From the sequence record JF770475: a stretch of 47,180 bases of DNA, one strand, 5' to 3'. The first letter of the stretch is position 1. Every line of letters starts with the position of its first letter. Shown piece by piece: positions 24,469 through 43,295 of the stretch. The notes beneath the pieces were generated by a model, which saw nothing but the letters and a program-made list of their open reading frames with translations, had not been told where the DNA came from and ran no database searches. The stretch is from Escherichia phage phiEB49. The translations under genes and the position numbers were made by a program.

Positions 24469-24494
24469 AAATAAAAAACCCGCACTAGGCGGGT
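24469..24494 (-). terminator. intrinsic terminator / attenuator between I and J
   Basis: Minus-strand ACCCGC-ctagt-GCGGGT followed by TTTTTTATTT. Confidence 0.55.
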
Positions 24495-24501
24495 TGTGAT
24501 T

Positions 24502-25077
24502 TTAACTAATATCTTCACTATAGCTACCAGCACTAAATACAGCGCCGCCAACCGTTCGATATCCATAAGGTAGGCAAACAGGGTTGCCAGCAGCAATGGT
24601 GTTTACTGCAGAGCCGAATGCGTATGATGCTCGGTTGCTTGTTTGTGATGCCTGGTCGTTCAATCCTGTTGCTTGTGGTGCCAATAACTGAGCTACACCA
24701 CCAGCAAGAAGGCCCACAGCTACTGGCAAAAGAACAGGAAAGAAGTAGGACGCCACCAGAAGTACACCGCCAAGTATGGTCTGGAATAAGCCACCTGATT
24801 TTCTACCTTGTGGTATTGGCATAATCCTGATTTCACGAACAGTCTGCAGGTCATTAATCTTGTGCTCGTTAACATTTTTACCGTCAACGAATACAGCAAA
24901 CCTCGTGTTCTGGCCCACATGGCTACGCATGAATTCTTTAAATTCAGGAATGTTTACAGAAAGAGCTCGCATTGCTTCTGGGACTGTTTTCACGCAAAGC
25001 TTATGTAGCTTTCCAAACTTCCTGCCCAAACCTAATCCCAACTTAACATCAATCACGTTCTGGGTCATAACCCGCAT
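24502..25077 (-). CDS. I: tail assembly protein (lambda I-like)
   Basis: C-terminal hydrophobic GGV..LLAP segment as in lambda gpI; overlaps K 3' end. Confidence 0.7.
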   Translation of the reverse strand: MRVMTQNVIDVKLGLGLGRKFGKLHKLCVKTVPEAMRALSVNIPEFKEFMRSHVGQNTRFAVFVDGKNVNEHKINDLQTVREIRIMPIPQGRKSGGLFQTILGGVLLVASYFFPVLLPVAVGLLAGGVAQLLAPQATGLNDQASQTSNRASYAFGSAVNTIAAGNPVCLPYGYRTVGGAVFSAGSYSEDIS

Positions 25078-25795
25078 CCTCCGGTAAATCTTTATGCCTT
25101 ACGATTCGCACTGTCCGCTCACGATAGTAGTCGCCGTACAAATCAACCTTACTCATCTTACCATATAAATGGTGTAGGATTTTATTATCACCAATGTAGA
25201 TGGCAGCATGGTTGGTCTTCTCGCTCTGAATCTGCATCATAATCATTGATCCAATTGGTATGTCATTACCTCGAACTAACTCAAACCCTTCAAGTTGCCA
25301 ATTATCATCATAGATGTTGTCAGGGTATTCATTCGTCCACCATTGATAATCTACTCGGTAGTCGTTCAACTTAACTCCGTGAATAGCATGGAAAGCCATA
25401 ATGAGCCCCCAGCAATCAAAGCTACCAAGACCCCAAGGTCTGCCAGATAAAGGCATCTTTTCAGGCTGAATAATACGCAGATCACCCTCAGGAATAGACA
25501 CGATAACATAAGGCAGCTCACACTCGTTACAGCTACAGATATCTGCTGCGGAAGGCCTGGTAGTTGCGCCGTCGCCAGTGTGAGAATGAACAACATAAAC
25601 AATACCTTCATTTTCCAAAATCTCCATGAATTCTGATGAATCAAGAATGAATGATTGCTCTGGTGTTTTAGATAAGTTAGTAATCCTGTGATACTTCTGA
25701 GCCATACCCTTCTGAGTTACAACCCCGCAACACTCATGCGGGTAAAATTCTTTTGCGTGCTTGAAGATTTCCAACTTAACTTTTGGTGTTAACAC
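25049..25795 (-). CDS. K: tail assembly protein (lambda K-like; JAMM/MPN plus NlpC/P60)
   Basis: HSHTGDGATTRPSAADI metalloprotease-like motif and Cys/His peptidase motif; start set to GTG 25795 after GGAGG. Confidence 0.7.
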   Translation of the reverse strand: MLTPKVKLEIFKHAKEFYPHECCGVVTQKGMAQKYHRITNLSKTPEQSFILDSSEFMEILENEGIVYVVHSHTGDGATTRPSAADICSCNECELPYVIVSIPEGDLRIIQPEKMPLSGRPWGLGSFDCWGLIMAFHAIHGVKLNDYRVDYQWWTNEYPDNIYDDNWQLEGFELVRGNDIPIGSMIMMQIQSEKTNHAAIYIGDNKILHHLYGKMSKVDLYGDYYRERTVRIVRHKDLPEDAGYDPERD

Positions 25796-25806
25796 TTTTA
25801 CCTCCA

Positions 25807-25834
25807 ATAAAAAAGGCCAATCTCTCGATTGACC
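25807..25834 (-). terminator. intrinsic terminator followed by ATTGGAGG SD cassette
   Basis: Minus-strand GGTCAATC-gaga-GATTGGCC followed by TTTTTTATTGGAGG. Confidence 0.55.
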
Positions 25835-25854
25835 TAGTTTAACACTAATTTCGT

Positions 25855-42154: not shown

Positions 42155-42642
42155 TAATTTCTATCTCCGTGATTCTTGTGAAACCCGAGAGCGTCTACAG
42201 CGTCTGAGCGAGCCTTTGCCGCAGCTTCTATTGTGTCAAATCTACCTAGATGCTTTGACTTTCCGTTAATCATGATTCTGGCCCTCCATTTACAATGGCG
42301 ACTACACCATGTTACACCTGATATTCCTGAAGTGTTATTCTTGAACCTACTCTTATTCTTTTGATTCTCTGACCTAGTAACCATTCTCAAGTTATCAATT
42401 CTGTTGTCGCTTCTGTCATGGTTGATGTGGTCAATTTCCATTCCGTCAGGTATTTTACCGTTAAACATCTCCCATACAACACGGTGAGCTTTAACCTTGC
42501 CAGTCTTTAAATTTATGTTTACATAACCTTCGCTGGAATCAATATTACCAGCAACGTGACCTTTCTTTCTTGAACCATTTTTTAAGCTGCGCTTCCAGTA
42601 AAGCAAGCCATCATCATAATCAAATTCATCATGCCAATTCAT
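42154..42642 (-). CDS. HNH homing endonuclease with AP2 domain, translationally coupled to TerL
   Basis: HRVVWEMFNGKIPDGMEIDHINHDRSDNRIDNLR; stop overlaps TerL start (TAATG). Confidence 0.75.
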   Translation of the reverse strand: MNWHDEFDYDDGLLYWKRSLKNGSRKKGHVAGNIDSSEGYVNINLKTGKVKAHRVVWEMFNGKIPDGMEIDHINHDRSDNRIDNLRMVTRSENQKNKSRFKNNTSGISGVTWCSRHCKWRARIMINGKSKHLGRFDTIEAAAKARSDAVDALGFHKNHGDRN

Positions 42643-42667
42643 AAACCCTCCTACTATTGATTAAATG

Positions 42668-42712
42668 ATGATATCAATAACTCATCCATGATTTTTGACA
42701 ATTAGTGCTATA
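42668..42712 (-). promoter_or_regulatory. dyad-motif promoter (variant TAGCA-N5-TGTCA)
   Basis: Core 42696-42710 overlapping TerS stop; minus TATCAT 42668-42673; GGAGGG SD before HNH ATG. Confidence 0.45.
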
Positions 42713-43223
42713 ACTTATCAATTACAGAAGCAAGAGCGGCCTTCATCGCTTCTTCATCGTTCACTACTGCATTAGAAGCGTTGTTGATGTTAACCTCTTG
42801 CGGCTTATCGATACCCAGGTCTTTGCCAATCAGTCCAGCATTTACGATATTGTTAATGCCCAATTGATACTTCTGCTCAAAGATAACTGAGTCGACGAAC
42901 TCCATCACCTCATCGAATCCAGGTGAAGATCGCCACTTGCTGATAGCATTATGGCCTACGCCGCAAAATAACTGAAATCCAGTTATCGTAAATACTCTCG
43001 GCTTGTGCACGAGGTTCTCAGTTACCACACCTTGGAAGCTAGCCGTATCAATGGCTTTAATTGCTTGCTCTTCAGCCCAACTGAAATACCTGACAGCCAT
43101 GTCGAATACCTGCTCAGGAGTGTACCTATGGTTAATCTTCAGATTGGCAATGTCGCCATACTTCTTATTGTAAAGCTCCTTGAAGTTACCTATCTTCTGA
43201 TGAATCTTTTTCTCTTCTTGCAT
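42708..43223 (-). CDS. putative terminase small subunit
   Basis: 171 aa immediately upstream of HNH and TerL; assignment by position only. Confidence 0.45.
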   Translation of the reverse strand: MQEEKKIHQKIGNFKELYNKKYGDIANLKINHRYTPEQVFDMAVRYFSWAEEQAIKAIDTASFQGVVTENLVHKPRVFTITGFQLFCGVGHNAISKWRSSPGFDEVMEFVDSVIFEQKYQLGINNIVNAGLIGKDLGIDKPQEVNINNASNAVVNDEEAMKAALASVIDKL

Positions 43224-43269
43224 GTGATATTCCTCCTGTTTTAAAAGTCATTGTACCATGAGTACGGAC

Positions 43270-43295
43270 GAAAAAAAGCCCTCACTAGGAGGGCG
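43270..43295 (-). terminator. intrinsic terminator separating early leftward genes from packaging module
   Basis: Minus-strand GCCCTCC-tagt-GAGGGC followed by TTTTTTT. Confidence 0.65.

Follow-up and report, generated by a model that had tools for sequence, protein, structure and literature searches.

The structural module of Escherichia phage phiEB49 (sequence record JF770475), which lies on the minus strand of the 47,180-nt stretch of DNA analysed here (the window), is interrupted by hairpins followed by U-rich tracts. These hairpins, designated T1 to T12 in the direction of transcription, have the stems, loops, stability, U-tracts and placement of intrinsic (Rho-independent) terminators. 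Together, they bound 11 units of 1–4 genes at positions orthologous to the annotation of phage T1. Comparison with related phages suggests that the terminators split the module into short units, the dosage of which is probably set by leaky termination combined with promoters that adjoin or overlap the hairpins and with read-through that depends on ribosomes; no dedicated antiterminator is required. The terminator-rich layout is already known from phages T1 and TLS, and the elements are of a familiar type. That status aside, we provide a map that separates nine core hairpins from accessory-linked ones (T6, T10 and the unit around T4) and sorts the junctions into those where a terminator is paired with a promoter and those needing read-through. 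The map bears on the timing and dosage of late genes in T1-like phages, which have no RNA polymerase, sigma factor or known antiterminator of their own.

Predicted terminator hairpins of the structural module

A strict scan of the whole window (mismatch-free stem of ≥6 bp, ≥3 G-C pairs, loop of 3–8 nt, dG ≤ −8, U-tract) returned 27 strand-hits, corresponding to about 20 hairpins, against 3.1±1.6 (maximum 7) in 30 dinucleotide shuffles. Twelve of the hairpins are on the minus strand, within the structural module or at its end. With a looser terminator scan of positions 24000–43800, 31 sites were found vs 15.2±3.7 in shuffles. RNA folding of the 12 module hairpins gave minimum free energies (MFE) of −10.7 to −15.2 kcal/mol and z values of −2.6 to −4.6, with 0–1 of 200 shuffles equally stable. 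All 12 have stems of 6–9 bp with 4–6 G-C pairs and loops of 4–6 nt, including cUUCGg three times and cUACGg and cGAGAg once each, and three stems contain G.U pairs, at which the opposite strand would have A.C mismatches. Since the UNCG and GNRA loops and the G.U pairs hold on the coding strand only, the elements are RNA hairpins of that strand. The U-tract directly follows the stem in 10 of the 12, as runs of about 5–8 U, and is weak at T5 (34556, UUUAUUGUAU) and T6 (32928, UUUUGUUAUUAU). Once gene starts are corrected, every hairpin is intergenic and on the coding strand, with T8 overlapping a stop codon by 2 nt.

The original prediction, made from the letters of this sequence, had described hairpin and U-tract elements throughout the minus-strand structural module, and the strict scan bears this out; the weak hairpin stability that it named as counter-evidence was not seen on folding. 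Its list of placements (before TerS, portal, two HNH genes, G, the tape measure, L, K and J, and after the decoration-like gene and J) is correct. Its count of about eleven overlooked the hairpin at 34556–34539 before the head-tail adaptor, and the hairpin after J (21026–21009), although real, falls outside the range of 24469–43295 that it gave. We also considered the structural module as a special terminator hot spot and rejected this idea: 12 hairpins in ~22 kb, vs ~8 in the remaining ~25 kb, is a modest excess, and the whole genome is terminator-rich. Two-way terminators, with U-tracts on both strands, occur at 15472–15491, 12386–12401, 3925–3952 and 21009–21026, between convergent genes or at module boundaries outside the structural region.

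Positions 24000–44000 matched 129 phage records by Megablast, the top ones being T1-like siphoviruses of the Rogue1/JK06/Sd1 groups at ~85% identity. The family is abundant, 842 phage records sharing the portal of the window, the protein of which is 97% identical to that of RobRod40 and 96% to that of one IMG/VR relative. The window itself corresponds to IMG/VR UViG 2700988963. These matches place the phage with the T1-like Drexlerviridae, in a Rtp/Rogue1-like clade. According to PHROG searches, the minus-strand module starts with TerS, HNH-1, TerL, a truncated phrog_14592 gene, portal and protease, followed by a 173-aa decoration-like protein, a 229-aa virion protein, the major capsid protein (MCP) and HNH-2. 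The next block comprises an 81-aa protein, adaptor, Hc1, Neck1, tail terminator and HNH-3, and the module ends with the major tail protein (MTP), the G/T chaperones, the tape measure protein (TMP), HNH-4, M- and L-like genes, a phrog_14592 gene, and K-, I- and J-like genes. Several starts were corrected. Portal starts at 40133, the ATG at 40160 of the mechanical list of open reading frames (ORFs) sitting inside a hairpin loop, and G starts at ATG 31645 with the Shine-Dalgarno (SD) sequence GAGGAG, not at 31675. The others are TMP 30979, K GTG 25795, adaptor 34518 and, outside the module, primase GTG 11436; J probably starts at the in-frame ATG 24421 (SD GAGG). The hairpins and the elements beside them are as follows:

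43278..43294, minus strand: hairpin T1, GCCCTCcuaguGAGGGC and U7, upstream of TerS; MFE −11, z −3.6
43250..43258, minus strand: extended −10-like TGgTACAAT, 22 nt past hairpin T1
40170..40178, minus strand: extended −10-like TGaTAAACT, abutting the 5' arm of T2; predicted start at the end of the 5' arm or in the loop
40153..40169, minus strand: hairpin T2, AGCCCCuacauGGGGCU, before portal; MFE −13.3; listed ATG 40160 in its loop
40141..40152, minus strand: U-tract joined to the portal SD (TTTTTTATTGGAG)
37232..37253, minus strand: hairpin T3, cUUCGg loop and U8, after the 173-aa decoration-like gene; MFE −13, z −4.6
37201..37229, minus strand: promoter-like TTGTAA-17-TATATT with TG, between T3 and the gene of the 229-aa virion protein
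35409..35426, minus strand: hairpin T4, cUUCGg loop and AU7, after the MCP gene, in the spacer of the repeat unit 35433–35447 that precedes HNH-2
34539..34556, minus strand: hairpin T5, cUUCGg loop, one G.U pair, weak U-tract UUUAUUGUAU joined to the adaptor GGAG; 5 nt past the stop of the 81-aa gene
32909..32928, minus strand: hairpin T6, in the spacer of the repeat unit 32928–32942, followed by the −10 TGtTATTAT and then HNH-3
31690..31712, minus strand: hairpin T7 and U6AU4, 5 nt past the MTP stop; MFE −14, z −4.4
31677..31682, minus strand: perfect TATAAT, 7 nt past T7, before G
30996..31015, minus strand: hairpin T8, then U7, AUGGAGG and the TMP start 30979; overlaps the stop of the G-T chaperone frame; no promoter
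27067..27096, minus strand: T9 cassette, hairpin AAGACCCuacgGGGUCUU (27079–27096) and TTTTTTTATTGGAG, L-like start 27059; 3 nt past the M stop
25802..25835, minus strand: T10 cassette, GAGA-loop hairpin (25814–25835) and TTTTTTATTGGAG, K-like start GTG 25795; TGtTAAACT abuts the stem
24477..24495, minus strand: hairpin T11 and U6AUUU, 6 nt past the I stop, then −10-like TGTAGAAT (24459–24466)
21009..21026, minus strand: hairpin T12, strongest in the module (−15.2 kcal/mol), 5 nt past the J stop; bidirectional, between convergent genes
11389..11427, plus strand: primase cassette, 11-bp hairpin (−16 kcal/mol, z −5.4 on RNA folding) and TTTTTTATTGGAG, 5 nt past the stop of a weakly Cro/HTH-like gene

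Conservation was assessed in a comparison set of 109 loci, comprising phage T1, Rogue1, RobRod40 and IMG/VR loci anchored on portal and the L-like protein. Orthologues of 22 window proteins were placed by tblastn, a strict terminator was sought within 120 nt upstream, and counts were made among distinct sequences. A MAFFT alignment across clades lost the register of the stems, which have been replaced, not point-mutated. Because the stems were out of register, conservation was judged by the junction-to-junction contrast in terminator detection, which is not circular:

Before TerS: terminator in 36/37
Before portal: 48/48, with 23 distinct stems
Before the 229-aa protein: 5/5
Before MCP: 16/48
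After MCP: 27/33
Before adaptor: 51/65
After MTP: 47/64
Before TMP: 46/49
Before L: 43/46
Before J: 15/15

Within the same 120 nt, none was found upstream of TerL (0/49), protease (0/53), Hc1 (0/64), Neck1 (0/66), tail terminator (0/61) or MTP (0/62), and single cases were found before M (1/48), I (1/42) and K (1/45), the sole K case being the window itself. Each conserved junction carries 7–27 differing stem sequences, every one paired: selection acts on the structure and position of the hairpins, not on their sequence. Nine of the 12 hairpins are kept in relatives that lack the insertions, and these nine form what we regard as the core set of the window. T6 (before HNH-3) and T10 (after a phrog_14592 gene) are present only alongside accessory genes; T6 came with its accessory gene, since the relatives have no terminator before either MTP or tail terminator. 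T4 appears to be the ancestral post-MCP terminator, now inside the promoter-like unit of HNH-2, and a stem similar to it in one relative reads TACCACCCTTCGGGGTGGTA.

Ribosome-binding sites, promoter-like elements and stop codons beside the hairpins

The original prediction had also singled out four cassettes (portal, L, K and, on the plus strand, primase) that share a stem-loop, a T-run and ATTGGAG. This is borne out at the same sites: TTTTTTNATTGGAG, with up to one mismatch, has 4 matches vs 0.21 expected (11414–11427 on the plus strand; 25802–25815, 27067–27080 and 40141–40154 on the minus strand), and 0 of 100 shuffles reach 4. Relaxed versions occur at TMP (T7-ATGGAGG) and adaptor (TTTATTGTATGGAG), and in all, six hairpins are joined via a U-rich tract to a Shine-Dalgarno sequence with the near-identical core CTTTTTTATTGGAGAAAT. 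The fusion is kept in relatives at portal (38/38, motif within 16 nt of the stem end), TMP (36/36) and adaptor (36/43). ATTGGAG as a motif of its own was rejected, as relatives carry ATTATGGAG, ATTAGGAG, ATTTGGAG or a bare T8-GGAG, with no ATT, at the portal junction. At the L junction of other clades, TTTTTTATTGG is kept, then the promoter TGcTACAAT stands in place of AG. ATTGGAG is thus the distal U-tract (AUU) running straight into GGAG, the Shine-Dalgarno of the gene that follows. Portal and L have cassettes with a longer common core, TAAACTA-stem-T6-ATTGGAGAAAT, and are 65–80% identical (shuffles 52%, maximum 64%). Concerted evolution or recent duplication of the two was rejected, their likeness within a genome being no greater than between genomes. 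They would represent a recurrent design or an old duplication, two origins that are indistinguishable here, and not a mobile repeat.

Promoter-like elements adjoin most of the hairpins. A downstream −10 was called strong with at least 5/6 matches, or TGn plus 4/6, at 5–25 nt past the stem. Family-wide, such a −10 was found at TerS in 45/45 (TATAAT 38, TGn 35), the 229-aa protein in 5/5 (TGn 4), post-MTP in 28/42, L in 26/37 and J in 19/27, and it was scarce at the TMP (2/37) and adaptor (2/43) junctions. In the window, promoter-like elements lie past T1, T3, T6, T7 and T11, including TGgTACAAT (T1), TGtTATATT (T3), TATAAT (T7) and TGTAGAAT (T11), and at T2, T9 and T10 they adjoin the stem itself. 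The adaptor and TMP units of the window were found to have no such element.

At the portal junction, the element stands on the other side of the stem. All 34 distinct sequences there have a −10-like hexamer ending 6–12 nt before the loop (TATAAT 14, TACAAT 7, TAAACT 5, TAAAAT 4; 10 with TGn), and the motif persists despite a differing upstream flank among relatives. This distribution of hexamer-to-loop distances replaced a narrower criterion, a start inside the stem with no more than 3 nt of the 5' arm kept, which gave 14/38. At control junctions, a stem-abutting −10 was found in 0/32 (TMP), 3/38 (adaptor) and 2/28 (TerS). The corresponding layouts in the window are TGaTAAACT-A-stem (portal), TGtTAAACT-A-stem (K) and TAAACT-A-stem (L). 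A start 7 nt past the portal hexamer would keep at most 3–4 nt of the 5' arm, and such RNAs would therefore be unable to form the terminator.

Stop codons lie close to another group of hairpins. In relatives, the stop-to-stem distance is −2 to +2 nt at TMP in 34/35 (one without a detected stop codon), 1–7 nt at adaptor (39/39), 3–7 nt at J (14/14) and mostly 3–7 nt post-MCP. In the window, it is 5 nt for T5, 5 for T7, −2 for T8, 3 for T9, 6 for T11 and 5 for T12, and 14–28 nt for T1–T4, T6 and T10, each of which has a promoter-like element beside it. The G/T chaperone frames (31645–31014, minus strand; phrog_569/17368/680) have a lambda-like frameshift layout, and the stop of the T frame extends 2 nt into hairpin T8, both here and in 25/35 relatives. 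Since this stop is reached by frameshifted ribosomes alone, which are few, they are the only ones that could mask T8.

Late transcription across the hairpins

The hairpins probably act as partial terminators and 3'-end stabilisers, by which mRNA would be stepped down after the genes of the abundant decoration, major capsid and major tail proteins, and its dosage would be lowered ahead of low-copy products (TMP and tip proteins). Polymerase could pass them by three routes. RNA polymerase may re-initiate at a −10 or extended −10 lying 5–25 nt past the hairpin (TerS, the 229-aa protein, G and J; L in other clades). Where the −10 abuts the stem (portal; K and possibly L here), new RNAs would begin in the hairpin, lack its 5' arm and escape termination. 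Finally, read-through may occur where the hairpin begins 0–7 nt past a stop codon and a terminating ribosome should block folding (TMP, adaptor, L and primase). The last route is plausible because lambda tR2 is repressed at a like distance (PMC4824070), and it is inferred only.

Several of these features have precedents. The GenBank record of phage T1 (AY216660) marks terminators upstream of TerS, TMP and primase, on either side of MCP, downstream of the decoration protein, orf46 and J, and at the M/L and I/J junctions. Several of them, including that of primase, reach right up to the annotated ribosome-binding site (RBS), ending on the base that precedes it, and the one orthologous to T3 is at 14237–14269. 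Before portal, phage T1 has TTTTTATTGGAG, i.e. GGGCTGTCaattGACGGCCC-TTTTTATTGGAGG-ATG, and after MCP, it has TTTTTTTATTGGAG. In TLS, each of the 21 terminators is intergenic, 11 belong to the structural module, and the ATAGCAC repeat is likewise present (PMC11447400); phages of the AHP24 group have 18–21 terminators per genome. The TLS paper cites Roberts et al. (2004) for “transcriptons” in phage T1, terminator-flanked units with their own RpoD promoter, which the TLS authors could not confirm (PMC11447400). Phages T1 and TLS share family, gene order and terminator junctions with the window. The window differs from phage T1 in belonging to another clade (Rtp/Rogue1-like), in the extra accessory-linked hairpins T6 and T10, and in its M/L junction, which is SD-fused here whereas phage T1 has terminator-TGTAGAAT-leader. 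Neither the stem-abutting portal −10 nor the proximity to stop codons is mentioned in those parts of the published T1 and TLS descriptions that were consulted.

In PhiX174, which has Rho-independent terminators in series between its structural genes, TJ, TF and TG block 20–40% of transcription and TH 70%, without antitermination and with a stepwise fall of transcripts (bioRxiv 10.1101/2020.03.05.979765). Its pA promoter ends where the TH stem begins, as at the portal junction of the window. PhiX174 is, however, a single-stranded DNA microvirus with 3 promoters and 4 terminators, the efficiencies of which have been measured, whereas the window has 12 predicted terminators with better stems and U-tracts. 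In E. coli, the terminating ribosome represses lambda tR2 almost completely when this terminator stands a few bp past a stop codon, and an efficiency of ~0.9 is reached only beyond 30 bp, although the dependence on distance is sequence-specific, with ~0.8 at 18 bp in one spacer series and ~0.12 at 17 bp in another (Li et al., PMC4824070). In the window, the hairpins ahead of TMP, adaptor, G, L, J and primase likewise start −2 to +7 nt past a stop. The tR2 work differs in using a reporter with a single terminator, and few ribosomes reach the T8 stop, the T frame needing a frameshift.

Late control in lambda relies on the Q protein acting at PR'/tR', with one late promoter and one main terminator. 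The window resembles lambda in that a siphovirus late operon, whose tail genes (G/T, M, L, K, I and J) are lambda-like, must be expressed across terminators, but it has many terminators, many promoter-like sites and no Q or N homologue detected among the 10 proteins scanned or in the phage T1 annotation. Hendrix and co-workers reportedly described morons, promoter-gene-terminator cassettes between lambdoid structural genes. The phrog_14592 gene between L and K, with a repeat-type promoter unit ahead of it and T10 behind it, has a similar layout; it differs in that the phage is virulent and the cassette terminator is joined to the RBS of the next core gene.

A bolder and rather doubtful possibility is that a grammar of three intergenic devices runs the whole late module of Drexlerviridae on unmodified host RNA polymerase. 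The first may be a terminator followed by an extended −10 promoter. The second may be a self-escaping insulator, in which a −10 abuts the terminator stem, as at all 34 distinct portal junctions. The third may be a ribosome-gated terminator, 0–7 nt past a stop codon and SD-fused, that passes only ribosome-followed polymerases; the hairpin before TMP may then couple TMP transcription to the rare G-T frameshift. Such a grammar, if true, would offer natural parts of ~45 nt (terminator, promoter and RBS) for synthetic biology and a simple account of structural-protein stoichiometry in Drexlerviridae.

Several observations weigh against a module run by partial termination, local promoters and read-through. 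A built-in scan counted 38 promoters in the region vs 34.2 in shuffles, not above chance. The −35 is missing from most of the proposed promoters, and TAAACT is a weak −10; at the L junction, it lacks the TG, and its conservation could be due to nothing more than the M stop codon that it includes. The classes of junction are not cleanly separate, as the stop-proximal T7 and T11 also have downstream promoters, and the ORF upstream of hairpin T1 is ambiguous, with a stop either 28 nt or 6 nt from the stem. The Pfam scan for an antiterminator covered 10 of the ~40 non-structural ORFs. A literature search for transcriptomics of Drexlerviridae or phage T1 (start sites, 3' ends, read-through) yielded nothing usable, and termination efficiencies, promoter activity and the ribosome effect are all inferred for this reason.

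The logical core of the original prediction, that late transcription has to pass or restart at many sites, is right, and the evidence favours the ordinary routes: promoter-like −10s adjoin most hairpins. The prediction went on to infer antitermination, processive antiterminated polymerase or a 3'-stabiliser role. With dedicated antitermination, host RNA polymerase would become terminator-resistant late in infection through a phage-encoded factor or through RNA, for which the ATAGCAC repeat is a candidate nut- or put-like site, and one or a few late transcripts would extend across every hairpin. There is some reason for this: eleven good terminators stand in series, five of them (portal, adaptor, TMP, L and K) leave no space for a downstream promoter, and many early ORFs have no assigned function. 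The repeat is co-oriented with transcription, can form an RNA hairpin of 5 bp with a 5-nt loop in which a C/T polymorphism keeps G-C or G.U, and stands directly before T4 and T6, as DR12 stands before terminator T62 in TLS (PMC11447400). We nevertheless consider dedicated antitermination improbable, and the prediction is not supported on this point. The conserved promoters beside hairpins at most junctions would be needless under processive antitermination, and the repeat lies 21–23 nt upstream of a −10 in 17/19 copies, so that it is mostly untranscribed from its own promoter; in the module, its place is ahead of accessory genes instead of core late ones. Among the 10 scanned proteins, Pfam detected no antiterminator family, whether Q, N or another, and gave only a weak sub-threshold Cro/HTH-like match (10901–11383), a Rha domain (18655–19284), ERF and DUFs. 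The serial leaky terminators of PhiX174 likewise need no antiterminator. The HHpred-informed GenBank annotation of phage T1 lists no antiterminator, and Rfam at gathering threshold returned one tRNA only, with no antiterminator RNA or other known RNA element.

Alternatively, the role of the hairpins could be mainly post-transcriptional, as barriers to 3' exonucleases or as RBS insulators or enhancers that keep the U-rich tract and SD open for S1, with termination being minor. U-rich leaders enhance translation through ribosomal protein S1. The six SD fusions with the core CTTTTTTATTGGAGAAAT, conserved at portal, TMP and adaptor, and the poor U-tracts of T5 and T6 would suit such a role, and terminator hairpins are reported to raise the stability of upstream mRNA (PMC11696848). 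However, canonical U-tracts abut the stem in 10/12 hairpins, which a pure stabiliser or insulator would not need, the U-tract at the L junction of other clades is followed by a promoter instead of an SD, and hairpins also occur where no gene closely follows (after J, and between the convergent genes at 15472–15491 and 12386–12401). A mainly post-transcriptional role is unlikely on this evidence, although it and termination are not mutually exclusive; the 3'-stabiliser role that the original prediction offered is likewise compatible with terminator function, and sequence alone cannot separate the two. The hairpins might also be DNA-level elements, either inverted repeats marking recombination or homing boundaries for accessory genes, or cruciforms. 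All four HNH and both phrog_14592 genes do adjoin hairpins or repeat units, and T6 and T10 are found only together with an insertion, but the U-tract is always on the coding strand, the G.U pairs and UNCG/GNRA loops are sensible only as RNA of that strand, and relatives without the insertions keep 9/12 hairpins, the intergenic gaps being the only tolerated insertion sites anyway. We regard this idea as extremely improbable.

The ATAGCAC repeat, accessory genes and neighbouring tRNAs

The repeat TAGCAC-N3-TTGYTA (palindrome TAGCA-N5-TGCTA) has 20 matches in the window vs 0.58 expected, co-oriented with genes and right after stop codons. A −10-like hexamer lies 21–23 nt downstream in 17 of the 19 co-oriented copies, usually followed by tacYYCATCGAA. 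With this fixed spacing, the centre of the palindrome would fall near −42, not at the sigma-70 −35. TLS, T1, Rtp and Rogue1 have been reported to carry the same element, as a 21-nt direct repeat, and the sections of the TLS paper that were consulted mention no fixed repeat-to-−10 spacing (PMC11447400). The repeat may work in DNA, as an operator or activator site, or in RNA, as a hairpin; in RNA, G-C or G.U pairing would survive the C/T polymorphism opposite G. Its copies, with the sites of hairpins or inverted repeats in its units, include:

42696–42710, 40580–40594, 35433–35447, 32928–32942, 27986–28000 and 26279–26293, minus strand: repeat units of the module, each preceding an HNH or phrog_14592 gene
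589–603 and 1266–1280, plus strand; 5557–5571, 7050–7064 and 8485–8499, minus strand: copies outside the module
19729–19743, plus strand; 44961–44975 and 46094–46108, minus strand: further copies
1751–1768 (plus strand), 7028–7041, 40558–40571, 27967–27986; 8446–8476, 17082–17109: hairpin or inverted-repeat sites of repeat units

Many repeat-type units have a G+C hairpin inside their 22-nt spacer, e.g. CGCCAatgaTGGCG, and others an inverted repeat bracketing the −10 (GATGAAGTGgtgtattatCACTTCATC, GGTGAGGTatagtTACCTCATC). Placement of the repeat varies: the portal junctions of distant relatives have TAGCAC 17 nt before TATAAT, i.e. at the −35 position, and at the I/J junction (phage T1 ~24995–25035; window 24445–24459), a repeat-like sequence lies in the leader, downstream of the −10-like TGTATAAT.

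Accessory genes of two kinds follow the module repeat units:

42154–42642, 34853–35377, 32390–32872 and 27450–27929, minus strand: four paralogous HNH endonuclease genes (phrog_99, E 1e-47 to 1e-69)
40316–40522 with a remnant to ~40190, and 25855–26220, minus strand: two divergent members of phrog_14592 (“virion structural protein”)

The HNH genes follow TerS, MCP, tail terminator and TMP, each with an ATAGCAC repeat unit ahead of it, and their sites differ in relatives (after TerL and tail terminator in RobRod40, after MCP in Rogue1). They look like free-standing homing endonucleases, each with its own putative promoter unit. The phrog_14592 gene before portal has a stop after 68 aa and frame changes, with the coding of the C-terminal KFEVKFE* kept; RobRod40 has an unbroken copy there. 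Between L and K, the second member (25855–26220) is intact and found only in the window phage, L and K being adjacent (9-nt gap) in the relatives Rogue1 and RobRod40. Both have the leader tacctcacacaaacgagaggagat, the 3' flank TGnTAAACTAG-hairpin and a C-terminal FEVxFE motif. The idea that they are recent copies carrying the cassette was rejected, as tblastn at 1e-5 does not link them and only FEVxFE and the 3' flank are common. The repeat unit 26279–26293 stands upstream of the intact gene, with TACAGT 23 nt downstream of the repeat, and terminator T10 follows the gene. With a putative promoter and a predicted terminator of its own, this accessory gene would qualify as a moron.

Rfam gave a single tRNA hit in the window, and the annotation of Rogue1 has tRNA-Arg only. 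Two tRNAs, tRNA-Val (anticodon AAC) at 43830–43906 and tRNA-Arg (CCT) at 43908–43983, both on the minus strand, are neighbours just upstream of the late module.

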